A stretch of 64,000 bases of DNA, from sequence record PP328843.1; one strand, 5' to 3'. The stretch comes from Escherichia phage 215Ecol030PP. Under the pieces are notes generated by a model. The model did not search any database and had not been told where the DNA came from. It was given only the letters and a program-made list of their open reading frames with translations. The stretch's first letter is position 1; each line of letters opens with the position of its first letter. The translations under genes were made by a program, and so were the position numbers. Shown here piece after piece: positions 12,498-47,056 of the stretch.

Positions 12498-12500
12498 AAC

Positions 12501-12526
12501 AAAGGGACCTTTCGGTCCCTTTTTAT
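12501..12526. terminator. bidirectional hairpin terminator between convergent genes 24 and rnlB
   Basis: AAAGGGACC-TTTC-GGTCCCTTT flanked by T/A runs. Confidence 0.65.
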
Positions 12527-14109: not shown

Positions 14110-15528
14110 TTATGGATAGGTATAGATGATACCAGTTTCTAAAGCAGTTTTATGAATGATGTATCCATTACGCGATTCTTGGACATCAACTTCTGGATAA
14201 TCTTTCATCATCTTCTGAAGAGTGTAACGATGCAGGTAGTATTTACTATCTGGATCTTCAGTTTTCCAATCTTTACCTTCTTCAGTCATTTTTTGGATTT
14301 CATCCATAACCCACCAACCGCACCAGATGTAAGCTGAGCTACGATGTGGAAGAGGATGAACATAAGGTAATTCACCTTCTGGTTCCGGAGCAGCTTTATC
14401 AGTTACCTGAACTTGACCTTCTGCTGTAATAGTTTTGCTATCATAATCAGCAGCAGTAACAGTTGCAGTAACTTCAATAGTTTGACTTCCAACAGATGAT
14501 GTATCAACGGTGTATACATTAGTTGACCCTTCTACAGGAGAAGAATCTTTCTTCCATGAATACGTAATTTGCGCTTCTTCCGGAGCATCCGTAACGTTAG
14601 CAGTAAATGTAGCCGAAGCATCTTGCTGAACATTAATAGAAGGAGGAGTCAATGTAACCTGTGGATTCATTGTCTTCTTATTAACTGTCAATGATACTTC
14701 ATTAGAAGTAACTTCCTTTTCATTATAATTTTCTGCAGTTACTTGGGCTACGCATTTAATTCTTTTTACTCCACTTGTAGTTGGAGTATAGTTAAATGTA
14801 GAGTTAGTTTCTCCACCAACTTGTGAATCATCTACATACCACTGATACGTAGCAGACGCTCCGTCAGGTTGAGAAGCTAATGCAGCAGTAAATTGAACCG
14901 GGGTTCCAATTACTCCAGCAGCAGGACTAGCAGGAGTTACTGCCAAGGTAGTTGTCTGTGTCTTTTTATTAACTGTCAATGATACTTCATTGGAAGTAAC
15001 GCTCAGTGCATCATAATCTGTCGCAGTTACTTGAGCTACACACTTAATTTTTTTAACTCCGCTTGTAGTAGGAGTATAATTGAATGTAGCAGAAGTTGCT
15101 TCGCTCACAGGAGAACCGTCAACGTACCATTGATACGTAGCAGATGCGCCCGATGGCTGCGAAGCTAAAGCAGCAGTAAATTCAACAGCTGTTCCGATTA
15201 CTCCTTCTGGAGGACTATTAGGAGTTACAGCTAAGGTAGTTGTCTGTGTCTTATTTTGAACTGTGATAGTTGTACTAATTTCAGCTGTTTCAGCTTCAGC
15301 TTCTGGAACTGTATTTGTTGCAACCACTTTAATAGTCTTTTGACCAGCAGGTCCTTTTAATACATAATTAAAGGTTGCTTCAGCTCCATCCTGTGGAACA
15401 TTATCTACACTCCAAGCATAGGTAATAGTTCCACCTTCAGTTTGACCACTGGGTGCAGCAGTAAACTGCTTGGTTTCATCAATAACCCCCGTTGGTGTTT
15501 TAGGAGTTATATCAACTGTAAAAGTCAT
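14110..15528 (-). CDS. hoc: highly immunogenic outer capsid protein Hoc, four Ig-like domains plus capsid-binding C-terminal domain
   Basis: 472 aa; C-terminal YIWCGWWVMDEIQKMTEEGKDWK... capsid-binding domain; two adjacent diverged 96-aa Ig-like units. Confidence 0.92.
   Translation of the reverse strand: MTFTVDITPKTPTGVIDETKQFTAAPSGQTEGGTITYAWSVDNVPQDGAEATFNYVLKGPAGQKTIKVVATNTVPEAEAETAEISTTITVQNKTQTTTLAVTPNSPPEGVIGTAVEFTAALASQPSGASATYQWYVDGSPVSEATSATFNYTPTTSGVKKIKCVAQVTATDYDALSVTSNEVSLTVNKKTQTTTLAVTPASPAAGVIGTPVQFTAALASQPDGASATYQWYVDDSQVGGETNSTFNYTPTTSGVKRIKCVAQVTAENYNEKEVTSNEVSLTVNKKTMNPQVTLTPPSINVQQDASATFTANVTDAPEEAQITYSWKKDSSPVEGSTNVYTVDTSSVGSQTIEVTATVTAADYDSKTITAEGQVQVTDKAAPEPEGELPYVHPLPHRSSAYIWCGWWVMDEIQKMTEEGKDWKTEDPDSKYYLHRYTLQKMMKDYPEVDVQESRNGYIIHKTALETGIIYTYP
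14677..15252 (-). repeat. tandem diverged duplication of a 288-bp Ig-like domain unit within hoc
   Basis: Hoc aa 93-188 and 189-284 both read KTQTTTLAVTP...TYQWYVD...EVSLTVNK; DNA about 80 percent identical. Confidence 0.8.
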
Positions 15529-25339: not shown

Positions 25340-26304
25340 TGTATTCTTTAGAGGAATTTAATAATCAAGCAATAAACGCAGATTTCCAACGTAATAATAT
25401 GTTTAGCTGCGTTTTTGCAACAACTCCATCAACTAAAAGCTCTTCGTTGATAAGTTCAATTAGCAACTTTTCTTATAATAACTTGGGCCTAAATTCAGAT
25501 TGGTTAGGATTAACTCAAGGCGATATTAATCAGGGAATTACCACGCTAATTACTGCTGGCACACAAAAACTGATAAGAAAATCAGGGGTTAGTAAATATC
25601 TTATTGGTGCCATGAGTCAACGTACAGTTCAAAGTTTATTAGGCTCATTTACAGTTGGTACATATTTAATTGACTTCTTTAACATGGCATATAACTCATC
25701 TGGATTGATGATATACTCCGTAAAAATGCCAGAGAATAGATTATCCTATGAAACTGACTGGAACTATAATTCTCCTAATATTCGTATAACCGGAAGAGAA
25801 TTAGACCCTTTGGTTATTTCATTTAGAATGGATTCAGAGTCGTGTAATTATCGTGCAATGCAAGACTGGGTTAACGCTGTTCAAGACCCAGTAACTGGAT
25901 TGCGTGCTTTGCCGCAAGATGTCGAGGCAGATATTCAGGTTAATCTTCATTCTCGCAATGGATTACCACATACTGCGGTGATGTTCACTGGATGCATTCC
26001 AGTGTCCGTAAGCGCTCCTGAGTTATCATATGATGGAGATAACCAAATAACTACATTTGATGTTACTTTTGCGTATAGAGTGATGCAGGCTGGAGCAGTT
26101 GATAGACAAGCTGCCCTTGAATGGCTTGAATCTGCTACTATAAATGGTATTCAAAGCGTTCTCGGAAATAGTGGAGGTGTTACTGGACTATCTAATTCGC
26201 TTTCACGACTTAGTAGATTAGGGGGAACTGCAGGAAGCATTTCAAATATTAATACTATGACAGGAATTGTCAATTCGCAAAGTAAAATATTAGGAGCAAT
26301 ATAA
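25339..26304 (+). CDS. 54: baseplate tail tube initiator gp54
   Basis: 321 aa, ATGA overlap with gene 48, hairpin terminator follows. Confidence 0.92.
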   Translation: MYSLEEFNNQAINADFQRNNMFSCVFATTPSTKSSSLISSISNFSYNNLGLNSDWLGLTQGDINQGITTLITAGTQKLIRKSGVSKYLIGAMSQRTVQSLLGSFTVGTYLIDFFNMAYNSSGLMIYSVKMPENRLSYETDWNYNSPNIRITGRELDPLVISFRMDSESCNYRAMQDWVNAVQDPVTGLRALPQDVEADIQVNLHSRNGLPHTAVMFTGCIPVSVSAPELSYDGDNQITTFDVTFAYRVMQAGAVDRQAALEWLESATINGIQSVLGNSGGVTGLSNSLSRLSRLGGTAGSISNINTMTGIVNSQSKILGAI

Positions 26305-26306
26305 CA

Positions 26307-26338
26307 ATGGGGACCGAAAGGTCCCCATATTTTTATTT
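26307..26338. terminator. bidirectional terminator after gene 54
   Basis: ATGGGGACC-GAAA-GGTCCCCAT followed by ATTTTTATTT. Confidence 0.65.
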
Positions 26339-26623
26339 ACGGAATGAAATGAAAGCAGCAACTGAAGCAACTAAACTGTCTTCAATATAAACTTCAATTT
26401 TTACCGGAGCTTCTGACTCAAATTTACCTGTTACTACACCCTGAAAAATACTTTCAGTCTGTTCTGGCTTTGAAAAATTTTCAGAAGGAAAAATTCCAAA
26501 CTTTTTATCTGTTCCGAAAATTTTGATAAATTCATCATAAACCGCTTCGTTAAAAGCATTATCAGCAGGAATAACGCCTTCAACTACAAGTTCTTGACCT
26601 AAAAAGCGTAAAGAAGATTTCAT
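26333..26623 (-). CDS. hypothetical early protein (alt.-3 position)
   Basis: 96 aa ORF with SD GAGGA and early promoter upstream. Confidence 0.6.
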   Translation of the reverse strand: MKSSLRFLGQELVVEGVIPADNAFNEAVYDEFIKIFGTDKKFGIFPSENFSKPEQTESIFQGVVTGKFESEAPVKIEVYIEDSLVASVAAFISFRK

Positions 26624-26631
26624 TTTGTGTT

Positions 26632-26684
26632 CCTCATGTTATGTCAGTAAGACTACTATAACACAACACGAGGGACTTGTAAAC
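26632..26684 (-). repeat. 53-bp early promoter/leader element, copy A
   Basis: 52/53 identical to 40168-40220; contains GTTTAC and TATAGT. Confidence 0.8.
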
Positions 26685-26934
26685 TACATTTTGAACTTTT
26701 TAGTACGCGTAATAGGCATGCGTCGATTTTATACTGTTTCATTGTTTGAAGAGCAGTATCAAAAACAGCATTAATGACGCCAATTGGATTTCCACCCAAG
26801 TTTCTAAGCTTAACCAGTGATAATTTCTCGTTGACACCTATCATTACGATATGCATCATTTTATCGCCTGGCTTAACGTTTTTATTTGTATCACCGCCAG
26901 AGGTGTATGTACAAAATCTAAATCCAGGAAGCAC
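26656..26934 (-). CDS. Alt N-terminal paralog fragment (alt.-2/alt.-1 position)
   Basis: 92 aa; PGFRFCTYTSGGDTNKNVKPGDKMMHIV... parallels Alt residues about 41-140. Confidence 0.6.
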   Translation of the reverse strand: MLPGFRFCTYTSGGDTNKNVKPGDKMMHIVMIGVNEKLSLVKLRNLGGNPIGVINAVFDTALQTMKQYKIDACLLRVLKSSKCSLQVPRVVL

Positions 26935-27045
26935 GCTTTCTTCGTCGGCTTGAATAGCAAAAATTTGAGGTATTTTATGCTTAGGATTTAAGTTAACAAC
27001 CGGCGCCGAAGCGCCGTCAAATAATTATGTAATAAGTTCCATGAT
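26935..27045 (-). pseudogene. decayed 5' end of the alt paralog
   Basis: Minus strand reads ATG GAA CTT ATT ACA TAA (MELIT then stop) then a GC hairpin, then continues in Alt-like frame into the 26656-26934 ORF. Confidence 0.5.
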
Positions 27046-29103
27046 TTATCCTTGAACGAACTTGTAAGGCATGTTTGCAATATCTATGCAAGACGCAATA
27101 ATTCCAAGAGATGATTCTACTTTCTGTTTAACATTTGATGAAACAAATGATGCAAAGTCAACTCTGTCTTCTATTTCAATATCACCTGTCATTGCAACTA
27201 CTTCACCGGTTTCCATTAAACGGTCTCCGTCATAAATTACCGATTCGGTGAGTTCTTCTGTGGTCATAACTTCAGCTTGAATAAGCTTGTTGTTAGTTCT
27301 AACTGTTCCATCGTTGTAAGATGCATCGGTTATTTTATTAACTTTGACCATTAATCCACGTGGCAAAATGACTTCCATTTCATTTGAAGGCGCTAAACTT
27401 CCACCAGGTAAAACAACATTGACCTTATCAGCCCCAGTAATAACCCATCCAATTCCAACTAAATTATCGCTAGAATTTACTAGTCCTTCATCAGTTTTAT
27501 CAATAGAAACACTTAGACGTTTTTCGTCTGGTAAAACACCTATAGATGAATCAGTCATCCAAGTACCAAAAATATTTGGATATAATGATGTTGACACAAA
27601 GTTTCTAAAATAAAAAACTCGATTTTTTACCATTGCTTCATATATTGAAGGTAACATTCGTTGTGAACGATACAAAGTAATACCTTTTGGTAATCGTTCA
27701 CCATTTTTAAAGGCTGAATCTAAATTATCAATGGCTTGTTCTATTTCAGGTGCTGTTAAAATACTTGTACGCTCATCTGGATTATATAATCCCAAAAGAG
27801 CATTATTTATGTCTACATATCCTGAACCTACATATTCACGAATTCCGCGTTTTTGCGCTGGCGTGTATTTAGATGAATCTTTATTTTCGACTATAGGATG
27901 TAATGACCATCCAGCGGTAAGAGCATATCCACGTAATTCTCTTCGAATAATCTTTGTTTTTATTGCATTCCAAGAATTTTGTACTAACTCATTTGCAGCA
28001 TCTTGGTTTAAATGCGAATGTCTGTTAATATTTCTTTCAAACCAGGCACCTTTATATTTTTCTAAAGTATCATCGACGATAGAAGCAATAGTTTCTAAAG
28101 TTTTTATTGAAGTAATAGATTCTTTTCGTAATTTTTCTAAAGCTTTATTTTTTATTTCTGCATTAATAATGGATTCTTTATCTTCAGGAATTATAGAAGC
28201 TTCTCTGAATGCCATCCCAGCTGTAACACTGCTAAGAGCATTCTCTAGTGCAAATCCTGAAGTAGAAATTACCGTTAATTCATTAGAATCAGAAATTAAA
28301 GGCGCGTCCGCTGGTTTATTTAATTCTGCCGCTGAAGCCTCAAATTTTTGAAACATCGGTGTTTCAAATCTAGAAGATTCCAATGATTGACTTTGTGCAA
28401 TTGCTCTACGGGAAATTTTAACTTTAACGATTACAGCTTGGTCAGAACGTTTATCATTTTCTTGTGCAATAGATGCTGCAATTGCCTCATTTTTAGTTAC
28501 TTGAGCTCCAGTATCTTTATTGATATAAACATCACCGACCTTCGATTCAACCTTAGTAAAGAGCTCGGTACTAATTTCCGGAACTCCTGGAATGTCTTCT
28601 AGTGATACATTTTTGCGATGTATAAGAATATATGCATACTTTTTATCATAATCCCAGAGTTCCTTAAGAAGGACGTATCTGCCACCTGAACGACTACGGA
28701 TAAGTCTATCAGCAATAACTTGAATTTGTCGAGCTTGACCAGCAGTTTTAGACTTAAGAATACGAAGCATACAGGCATCAATTTTATACTGACGCATCGT
28801 CTGCATTGCAACAGTAAAAACTGAATTGATATAATTAATTGGGCTTGGACCAAGACCTTTCAATTTAGCAATTGAACCTTTAGCGGTTAATGTAAAAGGA
28901 ACAATATGCATCATTTTATCGCCCATCTTTAAATCACGATTAGTGTCACCTCCAGATGTATAGGTACATAAACGAAAGCCTGGTTGTTCAATTGCATCAT
29001 CAACATGAACTGAAAAAATTTGCGGTATTTTCTTCTTTGGATTTAAGTTTGTAATCGGAAGAGTAGTATCTTCGTCAAATAATTCTGTAATTAGTTCCAT
29101 CAT
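27046..29103 (-). CDS. alt: Alt, capsid-packaged ADP-ribosyltransferase
   Basis: 685 aa starting MMELITELFDEDTTLP; T4 Alt size and position. Confidence 0.92.
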   Translation of the reverse strand: MMELITELFDEDTTLPITNLNPKKKIPQIFSVHVDDAIEQPGFRLCTYTSGGDTNRDLKMGDKMMHIVPFTLTAKGSIAKLKGLGPSPINYINSVFTVAMQTMRQYKIDACMLRILKSKTAGQARQIQVIADRLIRSRSGGRYVLLKELWDYDKKYAYILIHRKNVSLEDIPGVPEISTELFTKVESKVGDVYINKDTGAQVTKNEAIAASIAQENDKRSDQAVIVKVKISRRAIAQSQSLESSRFETPMFQKFEASAAELNKPADAPLISDSNELTVISTSGFALENALSSVTAGMAFREASIIPEDKESIINAEIKNKALEKLRKESITSIKTLETIASIVDDTLEKYKGAWFERNINRHSHLNQDAANELVQNSWNAIKTKIIRRELRGYALTAGWSLHPIVENKDSSKYTPAQKRGIREYVGSGYVDINNALLGLYNPDERTSILTAPEIEQAIDNLDSAFKNGERLPKGITLYRSQRMLPSIYEAMVKNRVFYFRNFVSTSLYPNIFGTWMTDSSIGVLPDEKRLSVSIDKTDEGLVNSSDNLVGIGWVITGADKVNVVLPGGSLAPSNEMEVILPRGLMVKVNKITDASYNDGTVRTNNKLIQAEVMTTEELTESVIYDGDRLMETGEVVAMTGDIEIEDRVDFASFVSSNVKQKVESSLGIIASCIDIANMPYKFVQG

Positions 29104-29137
29104 ATCCTCTCTATTGTTTATTCTATTTATAAAATTA

Positions 29138-29155
29138 AAGGCCCGAAGGCCTTTA
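29138..29155 (-). terminator. hairpin between the 62-aa ORF and alt
   Basis: AAAGGCC-CGAA-GGCCTTT. Confidence 0.4.
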
Positions 29156-29341
29156 ATAATCTAGTGGTAAGAGAGTACGGTATATTTCAAACTTTGGACC
29201 TTTTTCATAGGCATCAAATGTTTCTGTGAATTTATTATAAGCATATGCATCTACAAATTCGAGAATGACTTGTGATACAGAAGTAGAAACATCTCCACCT
29301 TCTTTTTGAGCAATGACAATTGTTTCTAAGTAAGCTTTCAT
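29153..29341 (-). CDS. hypothetical small protein between gene 30 and alt
   Basis: 62 aa ORF, ATGA start/stop overlap with gene 30. Confidence 0.5.
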   Translation of the reverse strand: MKAYLETIVIAQKEGGDVSTSVSQVILEFVDAYAYNKFTETFDAYEKGPKFEIYRTLLPLDY

Positions 29342-30801
29342 AGACCAGTTACCTCATGAAAATCACCAAATACATCTTCGAACGTATTAGCTTTAGTTTT
29401 ATCTTCGCGTAAACGAATCGCAATCGGAAGAAATAATTTAACGTAATCAGTGCGGCCATCAGATTTTAACCAACCGTTGCATTCGCACTCTAGAATTTTT
29501 CCAATATAATAATTTTGGTTTTCCATAATGCGAGTACGGTCAAGTTCATGCGATTTTACACCGGCTTTATCTTTTAAGCCTGAACCAGCATTTACTTTAA
29601 TTTTTCCACACTCTGATTCAAGAATAAATCCACCTGCTTTAGTAGGGTCTTTACGGTGAGGATAAATTCCTACAATTTTTAAATCAACATCAATTACTTC
29701 TTTAAATTTATAGAGATTTTTTGAACGAGCATTTTCCCATAATCCATCGATATTTTTGAGAATAATACCTTCAAGACCTTGGTCAATATACTTTTTATAA
29801 ATTACCTTAGCTTCATCTAGGTTATTTACTACTTGGTTTTCAATTAAAATTACTTTATCATAGCCTGATGTCATTTGTTCTAGTTTAGAAAAACGTACAT
29901 CATATTTCAAACGAAATGCAGGAAGACCGTATATTTCTACCAACGGAACATAGTCCCAGACCTGAAACTTCATGCATTGAGCTTCTTTTTCAGAAATGGT
30001 TCCCTTTAAAGATTTATTAGCGATTCCATTAGAAGTAGTACGTGATTCAGCTACTTCGGCGAATTCTTTGGCTTTACTAATTTCAGGATAAGCATCAAAA
30101 AGAAAATCTAGGCCTTCTGGCTCCTTTTTAACTTGCTCATGGTATACCAATTCGCCATCAATTAACACGCCTTCTGGATGAATCTGGCGGGCTTCAGCGG
30201 TCATTTTGATTAATTCTTCCTTAAGAAGATCTAATCCTAGATATTCATTACCGGCTCGTGATAAAAGACGAACATCATCTAATTCATCACCTCTGACTTC
30301 GGCAAAGCACCGAGCTCCATCAGCTTTTAACTGGGCAAAGGCTGGAAATTTGATATTCTTATTAATGCCTTTTTCATCATAAGAACTTGCAAGCATTTGA
30401 GGTTGTTCAGGAATTAAACCTGGCCAAACTTTGTTTGCAATAGATACCGAAGCACCGCATTCAAGGTCTCGCATCATCACTCGACGCAAAACTTCAACAT
30501 CATCTTTTTTACCATCGGTGATGTATCCAGTTAATTCCTCAATTGCCGCATTTCCAGTCAATTTCCGAGTAGCTAACGTGAATTCAATGAAGTCAAGCAT
30601 ATCGGTAAGAGTCAACATTCCAAAACTCTGGGTAGCAATACCAGGTTTAGGCCATTTCTTGATATAATACTGCAACCCACGAGAATAAGTCAGACGATAT
30701 ACTCGTTTAAGCAATTCATTATCTTTATTCTTTTCAAGAATTGCTTGCTTCTGCTTAGTTGAACCAATAGATGCTATTTCGTTCAGAATTTTAAGAATCA
30801 T
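29338..30801 (-). CDS. 30: ATP-dependent DNA ligase gp30
   Basis: 487 aa; adenylation motif KADGAR. Confidence 0.95.
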   Translation of the reverse strand: MILKILNEIASIGSTKQKQAILEKNKDNELLKRVYRLTYSRGLQYYIKKWPKPGIATQSFGMLTLTDMLDFIEFTLATRKLTGNAAIEELTGYITDGKKDDVEVLRRVMMRDLECGASVSIANKVWPGLIPEQPQMLASSYDEKGINKNIKFPAFAQLKADGARCFAEVRGDELDDVRLLSRAGNEYLGLDLLKEELIKMTAEARQIHPEGVLIDGELVYHEQVKKEPEGLDFLFDAYPEISKAKEFAEVAESRTTSNGIANKSLKGTISEKEAQCMKFQVWDYVPLVEIYGLPAFRLKYDVRFSKLEQMTSGYDKVILIENQVVNNLDEAKVIYKKYIDQGLEGIILKNIDGLWENARSKNLYKFKEVIDVDLKIVGIYPHRKDPTKAGGFILESECGKIKVNAGSGLKDKAGVKSHELDRTRIMENQNYYIGKILECECNGWLKSDGRTDYVKLFLPIAIRLREDKTKANTFEDVFGDFHEVTGL

Positions 30802-31067
30802 TGTTCATCCTTCAGAGTTTGGTTTACAGCTCTATTATAAATCAATTCATCATTAAGCTCAGTCAAAGACTTATGATATGTGGTTCTAACTTTATTTCCT
30901 TGCATCCAGTGCTTGACGTAAATGAAACCTTGCTCTACACATTTTTTAAAAATTCGTTCGTCTTTTTGAGCTCGGAATTCTGGATTGCATCTAAAAAATT
31001 GATTTACGTGACCGTAATCACGTGTAGTATTACCTTCATTTTCATAAATGGTATGAACAACAAACAT
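30798..31067 (-). CDS. hypothetical early protein (30.x cluster)
   Basis: 89 aa, ATGA overlap with gene 30. Confidence 0.6.
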   Translation of the reverse strand: MFVVHTIYENEGNTTRDYGHVNQFFRCNPEFRAQKDERIFKKCVEQGFIYVKHWMQGNKVRTTYHKSLTELNDELIYNRAVNQTLKDEQ

Positions 31068-31906
31068 TAGAATGCTCCTTGGAAAATATTATCACCACTA
31101 GTAGGTCTATTATACAAATACTCTATGCCACCAGGTTTAATATAGTTCCATGTCTGAAACGGATGTGTCTGATATGGATGATATAGATGATTATAAGGAT
31201 TAAATCCAGGAGTTCTCCAGGTAGTGTTCCAAGGAAAAGAATCGTTTTTGATCATCTTCTCAATTACATCTTTTATAACTTTTTCACTATCAAAACTTTC
31301 TTTATTTTCCTTCGATGGAAAAAGCTTATTCTCTACATCATTCCATGTATAAACTCGCTGAGCAGTTTTTGGAATATTGTCACGTTCTCCTCGAGCCATC
31401 CAATAAACCGGAACATTTAATATTTCACTCGCGTGGTCGCAGTGGTGAGCGAGATCGTCAATATAACAAATTACGTTATATTTCTCTTTTGCCTTTTTAA
31501 ACAACTCTTCTTTTGAAGAATCATGACCACACATCATTACTTCTGAGAAGGCACCAGGAAAAAGAGCATTCAAATTAAATTGACGATTTAATAGAGCGTC
31601 AATAGAATCACCCAGCGCTGTAACAGCTACAAAATTATAATCTTCTTTTAATTTGTTAATTACACACAGAGCATCTTTATATGGAGACAAGTAACGAATA
31701 AAATCTGAACGATTGTATTTTTCAATTAACTTGACGCCAAGTTCTTCGTCACAATTAAAAAGTTTACCAGGAGAAATAAATTTTTCATCTTGGATCATTT
31801 TTAAAATATGTTCCAATGGAAGATTATATTTCTGGGCAAAATAAGGAAGACCCGATTGCCAGCTTAAACATACTCCATCAATATCAGTTAAAATAGTAGG
31901 CTTCAT
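31067..31906 (-). CDS. HAD-superfamily hydrolase-like protein (30.x cluster)
   Basis: 279 aa; N-terminal LTDIDGV matches HAD motif I (DxDx[TV]). Confidence 0.65.
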   Translation of the reverse strand: MKPTILTDIDGVCLSWQSGLPYFAQKYNLPLEHILKMIQDEKFISPGKLFNCDEELGVKLIEKYNRSDFIRYLSPYKDALCVINKLKEDYNFVAVTALGDSIDALLNRQFNLNALFPGAFSEVMMCGHDSSKEELFKKAKEKYNVICYIDDLAHHCDHASEILNVPVYWMARGERDNIPKTAQRVYTWNDVENKLFPSKENKESFDSEKVIKDVIEKMIKNDSFPWNTTWRTPGFNPYNHLYHPYQTHPFQTWNYIKPGGIEYLYNRPTSGDNIFQGAF

Positions 31907-32367
31907 AGAGAGTCTCTTAATAGGTTTAACACATCAATAAATTCAGCTTCGGTTAGTATTGTATCATCTTTTGTTAGACCACTAGCCATGCTGTGCTTCA
32001 AAACTTTTCCTTTCGAGGCTTGTAATGCATCACGAAATCCCTTGTTTTGGATCGCTGCTTCAAAATATGCATTTGTGTATAATTCTTTCCACGCCGGGGA
32101 GTATCTTGAAAACGGAACTCCAAGCCAAAAGAGGGTCCCGCGGTCCTGAGCTCTTGCATAAGACCTTCCAGCTTGTTGGGCGGCAAGCCCGGATAACCCA
32201 AATATACGACGTTGTTGTTCAACGTTTTTCACCTTACACCCTTGGAGGAATCCTTCGAGACCTCCAAATTGGATACCATCCATAACGAAAGGCCATTGGG
32301 CGAAATTGCTTAATGCACATGATGGCCATCTAAAATTGCTTCTTATCTCTAGCTCAGGCATTTTCAA
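31903..32367 (-). CDS. NADAR / YbiA-like (DUF1768) domain protein (30.x cluster)
   Basis: 154 aa; SNFAQWPFVMDG...EGFLQGCKV matches YbiA signature SNFA.WP...DG...EH.FQ..KF as recalled. Confidence 0.6.
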   Translation of the reverse strand: MKMPELEIRSNFRWPSCALSNFAQWPFVMDGIQFGGLEGFLQGCKVKNVEQQRRIFGLSGLAAQQAGRSYARAQDRGTLFWLGVPFSRYSPAWKELYTNAYFEAAIQNKGFRDALQASKGKVLKHSMASGLTKDDTILTEAEFIDVLNLLRDSL

Positions 32368-32560
32368 TACTTATAATTTCAACATCAGCCCAATGACCAT
32401 AGCAAGGAAGACGAAATTCAACTGGCCAGTTAGGGTCCTTTTCTAATATAATAGACTTAACTTGTGGTTCTTCATGTTCATCGGTATACGGACCTTTATA
32501 CGTTACTTTATATGTGACCTTAATGTACTGAATTCCAAAAATCTTATTAATTATATTCAT
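32354..32560 (-). CDS. hypothetical early protein (30.x cluster)
   Basis: 68 aa ORF. Confidence 0.5.
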   Translation of the reverse strand: MNIINKIFGIQYIKVTYKVTYKGPYTDEHEEPQVKSIILEKDPNWPVEFRLPCYGHWADVEIISIENA

Positions 32561-32754
32561 ACTAATTCCTTTAATCCATAGATAGGAGATAATTCATCAC
32601 CCATACGAAGGTCTTCATTTCCATCTACCCAGGAAACAATATAAGCCTCTTTTATTTGAACGTCTCTCCATTTAAATGCAGGCAAAACCTTAGAAATTAA
32701 TCCAGGTATACCGACTCCCTTTAATTCAACAGTTTGACCCAAAAAGAATTTCAT
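32557..32754 (-). CDS. hypothetical early protein (30.x cluster)
   Basis: 65 aa ORF, ATGA overlap. Confidence 0.5.
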   Translation of the reverse strand: MKFFLGQTVELKGVGIPGLISKVLPAFKWRDVQIKEAYIVSWVDGNEDLRMGDELSPIYGLKELV

Positions 32755-33041
32755 TAGAACCTCATCTGAAATCCGTGCGATTTAACATTACCACCACCAA
32801 TGTCAGAAATATTAATTTCACGCGCAATTGAAGGGTCAATGTCAATTTCACGATTGAGTTTAATGATTGCTAGAGTATCACGTCCATTTACAGTACGGAA
32901 CTCTAAAGGACATACTACATTAACGTAGTTTTTAATCGATTCACTGGTAGGTTGCAAATGAGCAGGAAGGCCTTTAGGCGCCTTTGAGAAAACCACTTCA
33001 CAGAAATTTTTACGGGTATCAAAATAAGTAGTCATAAACAT
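32754..33041 (-). CDS. hypothetical early protein (30.x cluster)
   Basis: 95 aa ORF. Confidence 0.55.
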   Translation of the reverse strand: MFMTTYFDTRKNFCEVVFSKAPKGLPAHLQPTSESIKNYVNVVCPLEFRTVNGRDTLAIIKLNREIDIDPSIAREINISDIGGGNVKSHGFQMRF

Positions 33042-33057
33042 AGTATTTTCCTCAGTA

Positions 33058-33073
33058 AGGGGCCGAAGCCCCT
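33058..33073 (-). terminator. hairpin within ligase-region early cluster
   Basis: AGGGGC-CGAA-GCCCCT. Confidence 0.4.
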
Positions 33074-33082
33074 CATTTATTT

Positions 33083-33448
33083 TTAAATATCAAATTCGTT
33101 AAGAACTACATCAAAGATTGCTTCAAGATGCTCAGGTTTAGCTCTGTTACTCAGAATATGACGAATCCAAGTTTTAACCAGAAGCTTGCGATTAACGCCA
33201 TTCCAACAAGGATGAGTACCTAAATCACGTTGACGGAAATCATCATCTAATGCGATTTTAAAGGAAGAACCTTCTTTCGTGATTGAAACCGTGATGCCAT
33301 TTTCAAATCGCATATAAACGTAGTTAGGAGTCATATACTGTTCAATTTCGCATACTGATCCATTTTGATGTTTCCAAAGGCAGATAGTATCAATAGAACC
33401 TGCAATACCATTAGAAACATATTTACGTTCAAAGTTGATGTAGTTCAT
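33083..33448 (-). CDS. hypothetical early protein (30.x cluster)
   Basis: 121 aa; SD GGAGAA and early promoter upstream. Confidence 0.6.
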   Translation of the reverse strand: MNYINFERKYVSNGIAGSIDTICLWKHQNGSVCEIEQYMTPNYVYMRFENGITVSITKEGSSFKIALDDDFRQRDLGTHPCWNGVNRKLLVKTWIRHILSNRAKPEHLEAIFDVVLNEFDI

Positions 33449-33475
33449 TTTTATTCTCCGAGATGTTTAATTGCG

Positions 33476-33514
33476 GTACAGGTATATAATATCATATCCT
33501 GTACCAAAGTAAAC
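33476..33514 (-). promoter_or_regulatory. early promoter upstream of 30.x ORF at 33448
   Basis: GTTTAC-N17-TATTAT with 8-bp inverted repeat GGTACAGG/CCTGTACC embracing the -10. Confidence 0.5.
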
Positions 33515-33516
33515 AA

Positions 33517-33849
33517 TTATTTTACTACTTTCCAATGCTGCATGTCAAGTTTACCAACTTTTTTCATCTTCTCAATCAAACGTTCGGCACGTTGACGGGC
33601 TGTAACATAATACCATTCACCTAATTCATTTTGTTCAATTTTTCCAACGATTACTGTATTCAATTCATAAATCCAACCAGTAAAGAAATTATGAACTTGA
33701 ATTGTAAAGGTGAAATCTGTTCCCATACCTTCTGTTGTTTCTACTTCAATAATATCACCTTCAACTGCCATTAAGAACCACATAGTTTCATCATATTTAC
33801 CATTGAAGCATTTAGTTTTAACTGCAGCGTTCAGATTAATCGTTTTCAT
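33517..33849 (-). CDS. hypothetical early protein (30.x cluster)
   Basis: 110 aa; SD AAGGAGA and early promoter upstream. Confidence 0.6.
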   Translation of the reverse strand: MKTINLNAAVKTKCFNGKYDETMWFLMAVEGDIIEVETTEGMGTDFTFTIQVHNFFTGWIYELNTVIVGKIEQNELGEWYYVTARQRAERLIEKMKKVGKLDMQHWKVVK

Positions 33850-33869
33850 TTTATTCTCCTTTGTTTGTG

Positions 33870-33906
33870 TAAGATAATACTATCACAAAGGAACCATACT
33901 GTAAAC
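33870..33906 (-). promoter_or_regulatory. early promoter upstream of 30.x ORF at 33849
   Basis: GTTTAC ... TAGTAT; inverted repeat TCCTTTGT/ACAAAGGA spans -10 and SD. Confidence 0.5.
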
Positions 33907-33935
33907 AACTTTATGCAATCTTTGGAAAATAAAAA

Positions 33936-33955
33936 AGGACTCCCGAAGGAGTCCT
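33936..33955 (-). terminator. hairpin downstream of the 30.9-position ORF
   Basis: AGGACTCC-CGAA-GGAGTCCT. Confidence 0.45.
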
Positions 33956-33959
33956 CAAC

Positions 33960-34136
33960 TTATGCTTTCTGCTTACCAAAACGAGAAGCATCATCTCGAA
34001 GAACCGCACGTGCTCGGCGCATGATCTTCTCAACAGTTTGATTGATACGAGAGTTCGACCCACGCTTGTAGCCAGCGCGTTTAGAATCACCAACTTTCTT
34101 TTCAACTGCTTTCTTTGCTTTAGCTTGTTTTGCCAT
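33960..34136 (-). CDS. small basic protein (30.9 position)
   Basis: ORF track extends to 34178; ATG at 34136 gives 58 aa MAKQAKAKKAVEKK... Confidence 0.5.
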   Translation of the reverse strand: MAKQAKAKKAVEKKVGDSKRAGYKRGSNSRINQTVEKIMRRARAVLRDDASRFGKQKA

Positions 34137-34380
34137 TATAAATTCTCTTTTAAATGAAAATGCAGGACTTATTGGCATTGCCTGCGCAAGCCCTCAAGGG
34201 GAACATAGGTTTTTGGATATTTAACGACCAGGATAACCATAAACCCGTCATCATTCACATTCAAGAGGTACACCGTAAAACTGCCGGGGTCTTAAAACTA
34301 TAATGATTCGCAAATCATTAATCAGACAGTTCGACGGCTCCTCGATTTAGCTCACACTAAGGCAGTGAATCTCCAATAAA

Positions 34381-34629
34381 TTACTTCAATGTTACCACAA
34401 AGTGACGAACTGCTTTTCGCGCAGCAGAAGCCAAAGGCTTAGCATATTTAAGTTCATCTTTTTCCTGAAGCTCAGCAGCTAATGCAGTTTGAGCAGGATT
34501 CAGATGTTTGAAATAACGCAGGATTTCAAGAGCTTCGGCTTCAACATCAATAGATGCGCCATAGTTTTCGTGACCATTATTCCATGCGTTTCGTTGCAGT
34601 TCAAGAGCGTGTTGTAATTGTTTAATCAT
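34381..34629 (-). CDS. rIII: rIII lysis-inhibition accessory protein
   Basis: 82 aa; position upstream of ligase cluster and downstream of gene 31; late promoter upstream. Confidence 0.75.
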   Translation of the reverse strand: MIKQLQHALELQRNAWNNGHENYGASIDVEAEALEILRYFKHLNPAQTALAAELQEKDELKYAKPLASAARKAVRHFVVTLK

Positions 34630-34768
34630 TTAAAAATTCTCGTTAGAGATTAAAACTCGGTAGTCACGTTCTTCTGAATTTCATCTTCTTTCGACAGATC
34701 TCTCAGTTGTAGACTACCACATAGAATTGTTCGGTTAACTTATTATTCCGACACCCAATTCATATTAT

Positions 34769-34776
34769 TATTTATA
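34769..34776 (-). promoter_or_regulatory. late promoter TATAAATA upstream of rIII
   Basis: Minus-strand TATAAATA in the 31-rIII intergenic region. Confidence 0.5.
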
Positions 34777-35112
34777 TCACTTATAAAGACACGGAATAGC
34801 TTTATAGTGACAAGTAACGAATTTTTGTTTAATTTCTTTTGGCTGCTTAAGACCCAGAGCTACAAAAGGATGCGGAACATTTCGAATTTGACCAACTGGA
34901 AGAGAAGTCAAATCACCAACTTCGCAGAAACCTTCAGGAACATCAGGACCGACAGAGTGAATTACACACAGTTCAGGAACTTCACCTTGAACACGTTTAC
35001 CGATAATAAGTCCTGATTCTGTAACTTCTTCATCACCGGCTTGTGCAGGTTCAGAAACTAAAATAACATATTCACCGACAGCACGAATTGGTAGCTGTTG
35101 TACTTCAGACAT
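34777..35112 (-). CDS. 31: gp31 GroES-like co-chaperonin
   Basis: 111 aa, T4 gp31 size. Confidence 0.9.
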
Positions 35113-35168
35113 CGTTTTTCCTTTTTGTTAACAGATGAATTAATAATAACAAATAATTCTTAAAGCAT

Positions 35169-35477
35169 TTATTTACCAATAAATTGGAGCAAATGCTCAA
35201 CTTTCATACCATTAACGGAAATCAATTTGTCAATAGAAAAACCTCGCCATGCACCAAGCTCAACATCAAATACTGGAACCATATCAGTAGATTCTTTCCT
35301 AGTAGATTCCGTCAATTTACCAGTTTGCATGGTTGGCATAAAGTCTGCATCACGAGTACCTTTCATAACACGAATAGTACCATCAGACTTTTCAAAAACT
35401 ACGCTTGAAACACCCATGGACAATTTAGTTTTCAAAATTTCACGAATTGCTACTTTTTGTTCAGTCGTCAGTTTCAT
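35169..35477 (-). CDS. hypothetical protein (31.1 position)
   Basis: 102 aa ORF. Confidence 0.6.
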   Translation of the reverse strand: MKLTTEQKVAIREILKTKLSMGVSSVVFEKSDGTIRVMKGTRDADFMPTMQTGKLTESTRKESTDMVPVFDVELGAWRGFSIDKLISVNGMKVEHLLQFIGK

Positions 35478-35714
35478 TTATTTACCTATTACAGTTTTAA
35501 TATGAGTTGTTCCACGTTCTTTAAGAGTGGAAAGTAATTTTTGGCATTTTTCTAAATCAGATTTCCAACTATATGGTCTATCAATACTAGTCCAATCAGT
35601 TTTATAATACTGTTTCCATTTAGAGAAAAAATATTTCTTATACTCTACAGCAAATGAGATGTTCTCGTTAGAATAAGAACTAATTGCTGTGAGCTTTACC
35701 AAACGAAATTTCAT
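35478..35714 (-). CDS. hypothetical protein (31.2 position)
   Basis: 78 aa ORF. Confidence 0.55.
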   Translation of the reverse strand: MKFRLVKLTAISSYSNENISFAVEYKKYFFSKWKQYYKTDWTSIDRPYSWKSDLEKCQKLLSTLKERGTTHIKTVIGK

Positions 35715-36295
35715 TATTCACCGCAGAATTCGTTGATATTTTCCCAGTTTAACTTATTCAAGTTTTTCTTAGGAACATTAAACACTTCAATACCTGCATT
35801 TCGCAGAATATCATCCCAGCCAGGTTTATTTTTATCATATGTTTCGCAATAAACCAGCTTTTTAATACCAGATTGAGCTATCGCTTTTGCGCAATCCGGA
35901 CATGGAGAAAGTGTTACATACATAGTAGCACCTTCAATAGAAGAACCATTTCGTGCAGCAAACAAAATTGCATTTAGTTCAGCATGAATTTCATTTTTAG
36001 ATGACCATTCCGAGTGAGCACTACGGTGTTCTTTCGCCAAGACAAAACGATCAGTTGAACCAAATGATACGCATTCAGGCTTATGACCTTGAATGATAGT
36101 ATGTTTAGGCTTATTCAACAACCAACCTTGCTCAGCAGCATAATCACAACAGTTCACACCCCCTGCGGGTGAACCATTATACCCAGTAGAAATAATACGT
36201 CCATTCTTTTCAATTACTGCTCCTACCTTCCAGGAGCAACATTTTGATTCCTGCGATACTAAATATGCAATTTGAAGTACTGTACTCGCTTTCAT
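35714..36295 (-). CDS. cd: dCMP deaminase
   Basis: 193 aa; zinc-binding HAELNAI and PCPDCA motifs. Confidence 0.93.
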   Translation of the reverse strand: MKASTVLQIAYLVSQESKCCSWKVGAVIEKNGRIISTGYNGSPAGGVNCCDYAAEQGWLLNKPKHTIIQGHKPECVSFGSTDRFVLAKEHRSAHSEWSSKNEIHAELNAILFAARNGSSIEGATMYVTLSPCPDCAKAIAQSGIKKLVYCETYDKNKPGWDDILRNAGIEVFNVPKKNLNKLNWENINEFCGE

Positions 36296-36630
36296 TTCAT
36301 AATCACCAGATAAGCAGATTTAGCAGTTTCAACACGATAAATTTCGTGACGAAGTTTAGTTATACTTTTAATAACAGAACTAATTATATTCTGCCCATCT
36401 TTAAAGCGGTTTTTCTTATCAATAAAAACTGCGCCAGTCATCTTTTTGTGAAGCTCAACTGGATACTTCGTCACAATAATAGCATCATACACGGAAGGAT
36501 GAATACTATTCACCAGAGTATCATTCATTAAAGTTATTCTAATGAACTTTGCTGTTTCAGAATCAAGCGCTCTATGATCGCCAGTATCATTTTCAAGACA
36601 ATTATCAATTATATCAGTTAAATTCATCAT
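36292..36630 (-). CDS. hypothetical protein (cd.x cluster)
   Basis: 112 aa ORF. Confidence 0.55.
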   Translation of the reverse strand: MMNLTDIIDNCLENDTGDHRALDSETAKFIRITLMNDTLVNSIHPSVYDAIIVTKYPVELHKKMTGAVFIDKKNRFKDGQNIISSVIKSITKLRHEIYRVETAKSAYLVIMK

Positions 36631-36863
36631 AGTACGCCATACACCCTTTGTGCTTCAACTAATCCATCAAAATCCAGTTTAAGATGCGATATTTGATCGC
36701 CATCGCCTGGATTCACAATTACTAATACTGAGCGAGGAGTTTCGGTAATAACACGAACCGATGTTTCAGGAAATCGTTCAGAAACCTTATTTACTAATTC
36801 CTGTGCAAATAGTTTAACTTTTTCTTGGAATTCTTTAACAGTAATTGGTTTTTCGCTTAGCAT
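36627..36863 (-). CDS. hypothetical protein (cd.x cluster)
   Basis: 78 aa; SD GAGGA; early promoter upstream. Confidence 0.55.
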   Translation of the reverse strand: MLSEKPITVKEFQEKVKLFAQELVNKVSERFPETSVRVITETPRSVLVIVNPGDGDQISHLKLDFDGLVEAQRVYGVL

Positions 36864-36889
36864 TTCAATTTCCTCATTTGTTTTGGTAG

Positions 36890-36925
36890 AGCTATAATAT
36901 CACAACTCTACCGTAAAGTAAACCA
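36890..36925 (-). promoter_or_regulatory. early promoter upstream of cd.x ORF
   Basis: GTTTAC ... TATTAT with inverted repeat GGTAGAG/CTCTACC embracing the -10. Confidence 0.5.
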
Positions 36926-37201
36926 TTAAATCGCTTTGAATTCTGCTGTCTGCGATTCAAAACGAATGTCGCCTTTGATGACTAGCTCAGCATCAAGACC
37001 GAATACGACAATGATATGCGCTGACCCAGGATACAGTTGAATAACAACAGAATCCACCTGGTCTGGAAGCAAAGTGTTTAATACATGAGTCACTTGAGCG
37101 TGGATTCGAAGTTCAGCTGCATTATCAAGCTTTTCAAACATGTTATTAGCGATAATTTGGCTAAACACTACTTCTACGATTTTAGAGTAAGTCGGAAACA
37201 T
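36926..37201 (-). CDS. hypothetical protein (cd.x cluster)
   Basis: 91 aa ORF. Confidence 0.55.
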   Translation of the reverse strand: MFPTYSKIVEVVFSQIIANNMFEKLDNAAELRIHAQVTHVLNTLLPDQVDSVVIQLYPGSAHIIVVFGLDAELVIKGDIRFESQTAEFKAI

Positions 37202-37203
37202 AT

Positions 37204-37404
37204 TTACCTCACATAATTTTCTTCAAGCCAATCAATAACATCCAAAGCGTTATCAAAAATTGAACCATCTACTTTGTCTTCTGTTTCATAATCAAGAACA
37301 TCTAAGCCTACTCTTCCGTCAACAATAGGCCATAGACAAAATAGATATTTCTTTTCTTTTTCGATTTTATCACAAAGACGATAAATCTTTTCTAGATTAT
37401 TCAT
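37204..37404 (-). CDS. hypothetical protein (cd.x cluster)
   Basis: 66 aa ORF. Confidence 0.5.
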   Translation of the reverse strand: MNNLEKIYRLCDKIEKEKKYLFCLWPIVDGRVGLDVLDYETEDKVDGSIFDNALDVIDWLEENYVR

Positions 37405-37587
37405 AAGTTTTCCATGGTAAAGGCAGTTTAGTTTTCTTTACTGTTAGTTCAACATCAGGATTCTTTTCTCTTAATTTAAGGCATTCCTCCCAAGCTCTGA
37501 TTTCACTAGTGAATATACAAAATTGCCCATTACTAGTACCAACTAAACCACTATTTACAATAGCCCAAGTTTCATGATGCCAAGCCA

Positions 37588-37588
<1 letters not shown>
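37397..37588 (-). CDS. hypothetical protein (cd.x cluster)
   Basis: 63 aa ORF. Confidence 0.5.
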
Positions 37589-38788
<1,200 letters not shown>

Positions 38789-38792
<4 letters not shown>

Positions 38793-39025
38793 TTATTTTT
38801 CTCAACCAATGATTGAATATAATCATGCAGGTCTTTAGATGCTTTACCCCACTTATTTTGGTATTCATTTTTAAGATTAGCCCGAGATTGAGCTAATAAA
38901 ACATCATTAGTTGGAGGTAAAGATTCTAATCGTTGAATCTGGCGTCCATAAATCATTGCAGCCATCTCAGATTCATAAATCAATCCTTTGAGATGTTCAA
39001 ATTGATGCCATGAAATCATTTGCAT
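38789..39025 (-). CDS. hypothetical protein (pseT.x cluster)
   Basis: 78 aa ORF. Confidence 0.5.
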
Positions 39026-39315
39026 TTATCCTCTTTTAACTCTTGGCGATAATAACATATCATAGTTTTCTGATCATGTACATATCGTTTTACATCATTA
39101 AGCCAAATACGAAATTCCTGGGAATCTTCAAATGGCATACCGACCCAAGCTTTACCATCGATAACTTTAACTTGCCAAGATAGTTTAGCTTCATCATATG
39201 ACTTTATCTGCACAGGCCAATTAGGATGAACTGTTTCTTTCTTTACTTCTAGAGGCTTTGTCGAACAACCAACTAGAAGACCAATAGATAATATTACTGC
39301 TGATAGTTTAATCAT
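39016..39315 (-). CDS. outer-membrane lipoprotein, probable o-spanin
   Basis: 99 aa; signal peptide and lipobox LLVGC; directly downstream of and overlapping the membrane/coiled-coil ORF. Confidence 0.7.
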   Translation of the reverse strand: MIKLSAVILSIGLLVGCSTKPLEVKKETVHPNWPVQIKSYDEAKLSWQVKVIDGKAWVGMPFEDSQEFRIWLNDVKRYVHDQKTMICYYRQELKEDKCK

Positions 39316-39665
39316 TTAGAAAGGTCCTGGATGTCTTCTGCGAACTTATTAAAGGAGTTGTTGATTTGTTTTTCAACCAATCCTGGCTTATGAGCCACCA
39401 CATCCGCCTTCTTTGCGTCTTTGCGCAGTTTTTCATTTTCACGCTCAATAGCAGCAATTGCCTCACGATTTTTATTATTCATCGCATCAATATAATTATA
39501 TTGAATTTTTAAATCATTTAATGCTAAAGCGTTTTCATTGGCCGTTTTTGTAATTTCTACAACAGACGTTTCTAATCTTTCAATTTTACTTTTTAAAATT
39601 AAAGAAGTTCCGCCCAATGCAATTACAATTAATAACAAACCTGCTGTCGTATTACTTAATTGCAT
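39312..39665 (-). CDS. N-terminally anchored coiled-coil protein, probable i-spanin
   Basis: 117 aa; N-terminal hydrophobic helix LLLIVIALGGTSLIL then charged coiled-coil; 4-nt overlap with the lipoprotein ORF. Confidence 0.7.
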   Translation of the reverse strand: MQLSNTTAGLLLIVIALGGTSLILKSKIERLETSVVEITKTANENALALNDLKIQYNYIDAMNNKNREAIAAIERENEKLRKDAKKADVVAHKPGLVEKQINNSFNKFAEDIQDLSK

Positions 39666-40162
39666 AAAGTTTTAATAACCTCTACAATATCGTCTTGAGA
39701 AAGACCGTTAATTAAAATATGATGTTCAGCCGGAGATTTAGAAATTTTAAAGCATGCCTCAACATCTTCTGCCATATCTGATGCGCTACGATTTGGATTA
39801 CTAATTCCAAGACGATGTTTTCCCGTTAAAGGATTAACGATGATATAACATTTACAGTTGTTAATATGAACATTAGGTTGAGTCTGATTAATGAACACTT
39901 CACAGTCGTATTTCGCAAGCTGATTTTCTAAAAAGACTTTCATCTCTTCAACCGCATCAGGAAGCATATCACGGGCTTGCTCAAGACGACGATTTCGATA
40001 TTCTTTAATGGTCGTTTTCCGCTTGACTTGCTTAGCTAAATCTTTCTTAAGATCGGTGATATATCCAACTCGCCGATTTCCTTTAAATACAGAAATCCCA
40101 TCTGTAGTATCACCGTATGCTTCAACGACCATTTCAGTAGTAATAAGCTGCAAATCCATCAT
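39656..40162 (-). CDS. alc: Alc, inhibitor of host transcription
   Basis: 168 aa (MMDLQLITTEMVVEAYG...); early promoter upstream. Confidence 0.85.
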   Translation of the reverse strand: MMDLQLITTEMVVEAYGDTTDGISVFKGNRRVGYITDLKKDLAKQVKRKTTIKEYRNRRLEQARDMLPDAVEEMKVFLENQLAKYDCEVFINQTQPNVHINNCKCYIIVNPLTGKHRLGISNPNRSASDMAEDVEACFKISKSPAEHHILINGLSQDDIVEVIKTLCN

Positions 40163-40167
40163 AAAGT

Positions 40168-40220
40168 CCTCATGTTATGTCAGTAAGACTACTATAACAC
40201 AACACGAAGGACTTGTAAAC
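40168..40220 (-). repeat. 53-bp early promoter/leader element, copy B (upstream of alc)
   Basis: 52/53 identical to 26632-26684. Confidence 0.8.
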
Positions 40221-40223
40221 AGC

Positions 40224-41811
<1,588 letters not shown>

Positions 41812-46794: not shown

Positions 46795-47056
46795 CATTAT
46801 GTTCAGATAAGGTCGTTAATCTTATCCCGGAATTATATCCAGCTGCATGTCACCATGCAGAGCAGACTATATCTCCAACTTGTTAAAGCAAGTTGTCTAT
46901 CGTTTCGAGTCACTTGACCCTACTCCCTAAAGGGATAGTCGTTAGGCATTTAGGTAGAACCAAAGTCCTACAATTTAGCACGGGATTGTCTACTAGAGAG
47001 GTTCCCCGTTTAGATAGATTACAAGTATAAGTCACCTTATACTCAGGCCTCAATTA
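46795..47056 (-). other. group I self-splicing intron in td, 262 nt, no endonuclease ORF
   Basis: Starts UAAUUGAGGCCUGAGUAUAAGG... right after exon-1 GGU and ends ...CUGAACAUAAUG, as recalled for the T4 td intron; only a 16-nt loop where T4 carries I-TevI. Confidence 0.8.

Follow-up and report, generated by a model that had tools for sequence, protein, structure and literature searches.

The genes alt.-3 and alc of Escherichia phage 215Ecol030PP are each preceded by a copy of the same 54-nt cassette, in which an early promoter is embedded in a predicted RNA hairpin: the spacer of the promoter is complementary to the leader and Shine-Dalgarno (SD) sequence that follow it. We consider it probable that this early promoter-in-hairpin ties translation of alc and alt.-3 to their own early promoter, and that the near-identity of the two copies is the product of an old copying event together with constraint. 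The cassette lies in a window of 64,000 nucleotides (sequence record PP328843.1) from a Tequatrovirus, about 97% identical to T4; "the window" refers throughout to this whole stretch.

An earlier note, made from the letters of the window, had reported direct repeats with 52/53 identical positions at 26632-26684 and 40168-40220. Site reading and a pattern search reproduce this count and extend the repeat by one base, to 26631-26684 (copy A) and 40167-40220 (copy B), with 53/54 positions identical, a spacing of 13,536 bp (repeat family D8) and a sole mismatch at 26672 (G on the plus strand) versus 40208 (A on the plus strand). The note had also placed a promoter, a leader and an SD on a strand shared by the two copies; these parts are present, but the strand on which they are read had to be corrected, the functional strand of both copies being the minus strand. 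Read in this direction, the cassette is GTTTACAAGTCC[C/T]TCGTGTTGTGTTATAGTAGTCTTACTGACATAACATGAGGA, followed by the ATG of alt.-3 (26623) or alc (40162) at an SD-to-ATG distance of 7-8 nt in both copies. The cassettes and their neighbours are arranged as follows.

26631-26684, minus strand: copy A of the 54-nt cassette, in the gap between an alt.-2-like remnant and alt.-3
40167-40220, minus strand: copy B of the cassette, between rnlA (gene 63) and alc
26333-26623, minus strand: alt.-3 (96 amino acids, Pfam DUF5498; ORF and Pfam), served by copy A
39656-40162, minus strand: alc (host transcription inhibitor, Pfam ALC; ORF and Pfam), served by copy B
26656-26934, minus strand: alt.-2/alt.-1-like remnant of a second alt copy (ORF list, repeats D3 and D15)
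27046-29103, minus strand: alt, expected source of late read-through RNA toward copy A
29124-29131, minus strand: late promoter TATAAATA, just upstream of alt
40224-41384, minus strand: rnlA (gene 63), expected source of read-through RNA across copy B

At both loci the cassette takes up all of the intergenic DNA between the upstream stop and the downstream ATG, and for this reason the edges of identity are sharp; the DNA flanking copies A and B is unrelated on both sides. Copy B begins 3 nt past the rnlA stop. Copy A encodes the last 9 codons and the stop of the alt.-2-like ORF, which in the window and in T4 ends at a TAG (26656-26658) inside the copy A -10 box. In other phages the gap is bordered by a second alt gene instead of the remnant, and in T6, KIT03, PP01 and others, which have two full-length alt genes, the first base of copy A is the last base of the stop codon that ends the second alt. 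The alt.-1/alt.-2-like ORFs are what remains of the 5' end of this second alt, which is full length in T6, PP01, KIT03 and many other phages; direct repeats of 72-90% identity connect 26846-27045 with 28901-29103.

Between the copies lie alt, alt.1, 30, 30.1-30.9, rIII, 31, cd, pseT and small neighbours, a gene content that agrees with the description of this interval in the earlier note as an alt-to-alc block. The 13.5-kb interval thus includes the essential genes 30 and 31; in T4, gene 30 encodes DNA ligase, and gene 31, which encodes a co-chaperonin, is essential for head assembly. Repeats of other kinds occur elsewhere in the window. The td gene (ORF 47054-47746, minus strand; Pfam Thymidylat_synt, matched in 2 stretches) contains a perfect in-frame 141-nt tandem duplication (47240-47521) that is absent from RB3-type relatives, where the 601-nt query spans 460 nt; it could be a recent real event or an assembly artefact. 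At 14671-15246, a 288-nt unit is present in two tandem copies with 79% identity, presumably encoding repeated protein domains.

Promoter motifs bear out the claim that each copy holds an early promoter ahead of its leader and SD. Both copies have a -35 TTTACA, a 17-nt spacer, an extended -10 TGn and a -10 TATAGT (10/12 matches), which we read as a strong sigma-70 promoter, at the following positions.

26678-26683, minus strand: copy A -35 TTTACA (T4 form GTTTAC at 26679-26684)
26655-26660, minus strand: copy A -10 TATAGT, preceded by TGT (extended -10)
40214-40219, minus strand: copy B -35 TTTACA
40191-40196, minus strand: copy B -10 TATAGT with extended -10 TG

The sequences 5' of the -35, where an A/T-rich UP element would lie, are coding, differ between the copies (...ACTAAAAAGTTCAAAATGTA in A, ...AAAAAATTTATCCCAGAAGGATACTAAGCT in B) and are partly A-rich. 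One GenBank record annotates a promoter at exactly the 30 promoter nt of copy A. From the position of the -10 and the CTTAC motif conserved in other early cassettes, we infer that transcription starts at an A about 7 nt past the -10, at element position 37 (~26648 in copy A and ~40184 in copy B). In a T4 time course, alt.-3 and alc are early in both RNA and protein, alt.-1/-2 are middle, alt is late, and rnlA is early as RNA but late as protein (PMC9697503); the timing of alt.-3 and alc fits transcription from their own early promoters.

The similarity between the copies goes well beyond what is shared by early promoters in general, as the earlier note had argued. Among eight early-promoter cassettes of the window, 16-36 of 54 positions agree (mean 24); in the pair, 53/54 do. 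Searching the window with up to 3 mismatches returns the two copies and no others, and at the same threshold 100 dinucleotide-preserving shuffles yield 0 chance matches. Of 50,697 phage records queried by BLAST with the 54-mer, 499 match, all of them Tequatrovirus as judged by record names and hosts; they contain 997 places with 94-100% identity, or about two per genome. This genome-wide copy search had been set beforehand as the test on which the claim could fail; many copies were not found, and the reading of the repeat as a duplicated regulatory cassette stands. It is true that the T4 early consensus is unusually long, comprising an UP element, the -35, TGn and the -10 (PMC2988021), and that cassettes in the window have in common GTTTAC, GTG-TAnnAT, a CTTAC start motif and an AUGAGGA-like SD. 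That the two copies resemble each other merely as instances of T4 early promoters joined to ribosome-binding sites, with no specific relation, is nevertheless close to inconceivable, and the window search, the BLAST counts and the promoter comparison together rule out consensus as the sole explanation. An Rfam scan of 26300-40500 gave chance matches below the gathering score, none of them at the element.

The duplicated-cassette reading, right in itself, had missed why the whole unit is constrained, namely that the spacer pairs with the leader and SD. Folding of the minus-strand RNA pairs element positions 12-25 with positions 40-53 in a hairpin of 18 pairs, including three G-U pairs, with a 2-nt bulge, an inner 4-bp stem and a GUCU loop; this interrupted 18-bp helix spans the -10. 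Its parts map as follows.

26660-26673, minus strand: copy A 5' arm CCUCGUGUUGUGUU, the promoter spacer with anti-SD CCUC (element positions 12-25)
26646-26657, minus strand: copy A inner 4-bp stem and GUCU loop (element positions 28-39)
26632-26645, minus strand: copy A 3' arm GACAUAACAUGAGG, the leader and SD GAGG (26632-26635; element positions 40-53)
40196-40209, minus strand: copy B 5' arm
40168-40181, minus strand: copy B 3' arm with SD GAGG (40168-40171)

The anti-SD CCUC and GUGUUGUGUU of the spacer are complementary to the leader and SD GACAUAACAUGAGG, and in copy B the stem extends outward through pairing of AAGUCC with GGACUU. The sense folds have energies of -23.0 (A) and -24.4 (B) kcal/mol (z = -4.5 and -4.6), with 0/200 shuffles as stable, whereas the antisense folds are weaker (-17.2 and -15.4 kcal/mol); the three G-U pairs exist solely on the mRNA strand. 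RNA that begins at the expected start has no 5' arm, and its leader is predicted to be unstructured (-0.8 kcal/mol). The predicted probability that the SD is unpaired is accordingly ~0.00 in read-through RNA and 0.4-0.9 in promoter-started RNA.

These predictions suggest how the cassette may work. On the minus strand, a terminator scan finds no terminator-like site that would separate either cassette from its upstream genes, and alt is preceded by a late promoter; for these reasons, read-through RNA is expected to cross both cassettes. RNA entering from upstream, from rnlA into alc or from alt (through its late promoter) and the remnants into alt.-3, would carry both arms and would fold into the 18-bp hairpin, burying the SD, and the downstream gene would therefore be poorly translated from it. 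RNA started at the cassette promoter would begin about 7 nt after the -10, inside the hairpin, and thus lack the 5' arm and leave the SD free. Translation of alc and alt.-3 would in this way be limited to the first minutes of infection. This translational masking is predicted from modelled folds, and several features of the loci bear on it. The alt.-2-like ORF crosses the 5' arm of copy A and, if it is translated, ribosomes would open the hairpin, giving coupling rather than masking; the Alt.-2 protein was undetected in the T4 proteome (PMC9697503). A ribosome terminating on rnlA could fray the base of the copy B stem. Some of the complementarity may also ride on promoter constraint, since part of the spacer (GTTGTG, TGn) is itself promoter consensus.

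Comparison within Tequatrovirus gives the hairpin modest covariation support. The element is represented by 23 distinct haplotypes, drawn from GenBank, IMG/VR and metagenome loci; the panel stretches of teqskov and Shfl2 end just short of copy A and contributed copy B alone. Across the haplotypes, 98.3% of cells are paired on the proposed structure and the -35 region (element positions 1-10) is invariant. Variation is concentrated in unpaired sites (6/8 variable, versus 10/36 paired sites; Fisher p = 0.019). Pair 15-50 appears as C-G (19 sequences), U-G (2) or U-A (2), and pairs 13-52, 16-49, 21-44, 23-42 and 25-40 each show a one-sided change to another standard pair. Pairing is broken in seven cells: 12 C>A, 16 G>T, 18 G>A, 29 G>A (three times) and 40 G>T. 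The covariation score, which within the genus includes one compensatory pair, was reached by 11 of 500 shuffles.

Across the Tevenvirinae, the layout is conserved at alc while the sequence of the arms is not. The alc cassettes of Dhakavirus, Gelderlandvirus, Kanagawavirus and several other Tevenvirinae contigs have in common a -35 GTTTACA, directly followed by the anti-SD strand, a -10 close to the loop, and a 3' strand with the SD at its end, with different arms in each case (5' arm / 3' arm).

Dhakavirus alc: UCUCCUCAU / AUGAGGAGA
Gelderlandvirus alc: UCUCCGUUUAGUU / AACCAAACGGAGA
Kanagawavirus alc: CUCCAUUUCGUUGUGU / ACACUAACGAAAUGGAG
Further contigs, alc, examples: UCUCCAUUUGGUUGUGU / ACACUAACCAAAUGGAGA; UCCUCAUUUUGUUG / CAACAAAAUGAGGA

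RNAalifold on 15 alc cassettes recovers 8 anti-SD/SD pairs, 6 of them with compensatory changes, an under-count, as the MAFFT alignment misplaces the arms of Tequatrovirus and Dhakavirus (the stretch from Marfa does not include the alc start). Because of this misalignment of two lineages, we added a comparison of cognate and non-cognate arm duplexes: cognate arms average -20.8 kcal/mol versus -13.4 kcal/mol for non-cognate ones, and 0/20,000 permutations reach the observed value. Most of the other genera have GGAG as the masked SD. SD masking is missing from the RB69-type (Mosigvirus) and a few other alc cassettes, which have instead a small spacer hairpin or a hairpin beside the SD, so that alc can do without masking.

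RB69, VR5, IME08, Marfa, Melville and related contigs have a different type of cassette before alt.-3, one with a free SD. Its spacer, outside Tequatrovirus, holds a small co-varying hairpin, e.g., CCACA-AGGA-UGUGG, with stems CCACA/UGUGG, GCAC/GUGC, UCCAC/GUGGA and AUCC/GGAU around an A(A/U)GGA(A/U) loop, and the RB69-type alc cassettes carry this same small hairpin. In Kosakonia phage 305 and two contigs, the alt.-3 spacer GAAUGAACG is paired to AUGCGUUCAUUC, the start codon and the first codons of the gene, and the SD lies within an inner stem (predicted -25 to -30 kcal/mol); as modelled, this fold is a different way to mask the start of the same gene. In VR25/VR26-type contigs and the GenBank records P479 and TH44, the alc match extends over about 740 nt in two pieces, and the gene seems to be split or to contain an insertion; upstream of it are a strong terminator-like hairpin and a different SD-masking hairpin.

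The alc-type cassette is found before alt.-3 in Tequatrovirus only, and since the alt.-3 of other lineages has another cassette type, we infer from this sequence distribution that the alt.-3 position received a copy of the alc cassette no later than the base of Tequatrovirus. A copy of that age, in a unit where the promoter, the two hairpin arms and the SD overlap and leave few free sites, would account for the near-identity of A and B. A similar transfer appears in Dhakavirus. The six genomes sampled have a common alt.-3 leader ACCTTACACAAACATGAGGAGAACATTATG, and five of them have a different alc leader; VR5 alone has the alt.-3 leader before alc, identical over 32 nt including the ATG, which on this sequence comparison is a second, independent and polarised conversion event. 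It is quite possible, if short of probable, that early-promoter hairpins conserved in the Tevenvirinae confine translation of alc, and in Tequatrovirus also of alt.-3, to the genes' own early RNA, the cassette having also passed from one of these loci to the other at least twice, through short-tract gene conversion; the two moves would be of the whole 54 bp in the Tequatrovirus stem lineage and of the 32-bp leader in Dhakavirus VR5.

Other roles for the hairpin and other origins for the identity have to be weighed against these readings. A terminator or attenuator, or an RNA processing or stability site (RNase III, protection from RegB), in place of a translation mask is an improbable account of the helix. 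It is suggested by the PeSL units of T4-like phages, which consist of a sigma-70-type early promoter (PST/T4 consensus TTTACW-N17-TAYWAT), a stem-loop, and an SD and ATG, and whose stem-loops have been read by their authors as terminators and recombination linkers (PMC2839356, PMC4122927), having attenuated transcription in a reporter (PMC2839356). The GenBank record SA20RB, moreover, has a WebGeSTer "terminator" over copy A. Yet neither strand has a U tract after the stem, what lies downstream is A-rich, and the part of the helix that is conserved and co-varies is specifically the anti-SD/SD pairing; an intrinsic terminator was rejected on the negative scans at both copies, a true terminator-like hairpin being found at 26307-26328. 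Processing draws some support from the masked GGAG of most other genera, which is a RegB target and a motif that RNA structure can shield from RegB (PMC3014915), but the Tequatrovirus SD is GAGGA, without GGAG. The hairpin at 26307-26328 is a G+C-rich palindrome (ATGGGGACCGAAAGGTCCCCAT) between the convergent genes 54 and alt.-3, annotated in other records as a bidirectional terminator, and an arm resembling it occurs at 12496-12519 (inverted repeat I5).

As to the identity of the copies, continuing gene conversion (concerted evolution) in place of an old copy plus constraint is unlikely in our judgement, yet has real points in its favour. No fixed difference separates A from B in Tequatrovirus, and the A-B distance (~2.7/54) is about the orthologous diversity (A-A 3.0, B-B 2.2); a double variant, TATAAT-AAT, occurs at both loci in PP01 and UFV10, and the conversion in VR5, whose five sister phages differ, shows the same kind of exchange. 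In a first test of conversion p was 0.023, with p = 0.002 for shared polymorphic sites; with the larger genome set, the A-B distance is 2.36 within a genome and 2.68 between genomes (p = 0.049), but p rises to 0.12 once identical genome types are collapsed, in a sample of 22 genomes. Most of the shared polymorphic sites fall in the loop, the bulge or wobble pairs, where the hairpin leaves the sequence free to change, and recurrent mutation can for this reason explain the shared variants. Evidence for ongoing concerted evolution within Tequatrovirus is thus weak, and we keep it as a possibility. We give still less credence to the cassettes being PeSL-type recombination linkers whose main role is deleting, duplicating, circle-excising or shuffling the DNA between them, a role close to that in the earlier note, which saw in the repeats homology for deleting or shuffling the alt-to-alc block. 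PeSL units do mediate indels and mini-circles in RB49/phi1 and PST/T4 (PMC2839356, PMC4122927), and 54 bp is about the homology needed by T4 recombination (Singer et al. 1982, as cited in PMC2839356). The region next to copy A is variable, with at least 80% of 26300-27000 covered in only 90 of the 499 records, and cassette sequence has been exchanged between the two loci, where the comparative data show it moving as short tracts. Against a linker role, and against the deletion or shuffling claim, stand the essential genes 30 and 31 within the interval, the constancy of about two copies per genome in the 499 records, and the junctions themselves: a search for deletion variants found parental junctions, alt'->alt.-3 or rnlA->alc, in 61/61 copies with flanks read, and no rnlA->alt.-3 or alt'->alc junction among them. 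Scanning IMG/VR and metagenome contigs recovered just 8 and 9 stretches, and the junctions in these were again parental. To judge from headful packaging, moreover, a duplication of 13.5 kb would be more than the terminal redundancy of T4 allows.

Related structures are present at other early cassettes of the window. Before gene 30.8 (ORF 33517-33849), at 33847-33906 on the minus strand, the spacer UUCCUUUGUG pairs with the SD region CACAAACAAAGGAG of the same cassette, with a predicted probability of 0.00 that the SD is unpaired and a predicted fold energy of -12.5 kcal/mol; its leader resembles the Dhakavirus alt.-3 leader. At the promoter starts 49296, 36923 and 33514 (minus strand), a stable hairpin lies over the -10 and the SD is free, an arrangement that is PeSL-like, with the 5' arm in the spacer and the 3' arm around +1.

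If the promoter-in-hairpin reading is true, the cassette represents an unlisted class of T4 cis-acting RNA control, in which the spacer of a host-type early promoter doubles as an anti-Shine-Dalgarno strand, and alc and alt.-3 would be made solely from their own early transcripts, not from abundant rnlA or alt read-through RNA. The genes concerned are host-takeover or accessory genes: alc terminates transcription on cytosine DNA, and mutants with a C-terminal extension of alt.-3 let T4 escape the CmdTAC defence (PMC11618068). The model would account for the near-invariance of the whole promoter, leader and SD unit, and would illustrate cleanly, in a highly recombinogenic phage, how a regulatory cassette can be copied to a distant locus. 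For phage engineering, it would mean that the two 54-bp repeats are not to be handled as independent promoters, and that the cassette is a compact part that might give promoter-dependent translation.

We regard the cassette as a variant of control devices already known from T4, the PeSL units and the hairpins that mask translation starts. With T4 early promoters (PMC2988021), it shares GTTTAC, TGn, a TAnnnT -10, a CTTAC-like start and early downstream genes; those promoters differ from the cassette pair in that no spacer, leader and SD is common to another promoter, whereas here the shared unit is 54 nt. With PeSL units, it has in common a G-U-containing stem-loop placed over the -10 or in the interval from -35 to -10, a 3' end made up of the SD and start codon, and repetition in the genome with copies that can exchange sequence. 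Unlike them, its 3' stem arm is the SD itself and no U tract is present; the use of the SD as stem arm points to translation masking rather than termination. Its copies, moreover, number just two, are nearly identical and stand 13.5 kb apart with essential genes between them; they do not gather around ORFans in a hyperplastic region, and no indel or circle bounded by them was seen. The closest functional parallel is with T4 e (lysozyme), soc, 49 and I-TevI, where hairpins mask the translation start in long transcripts (PMC3014915) and transcripts from an internal promoter lack the 5' strand of the helix and are translatable, the temporal gating that we predict for the cassette. In those genes the internal promoter is the late promoter TATAAATA and translation is late only; that motif is absent from both copies, and in the cassette the promoter is an early sigma-70 one whose spacer forms the 5' arm, and the gating would be the early-only mirror image. 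Among the masking-hairpin examples in PMC3014915, the list with which the two genes were compared, neither alc nor alt.-3 appears. What is added here to these systems is a conserved hairpin with an internal early promoter, predicted from its modelled folds to act as a gate on alc and, by transfer, on alt.-3.
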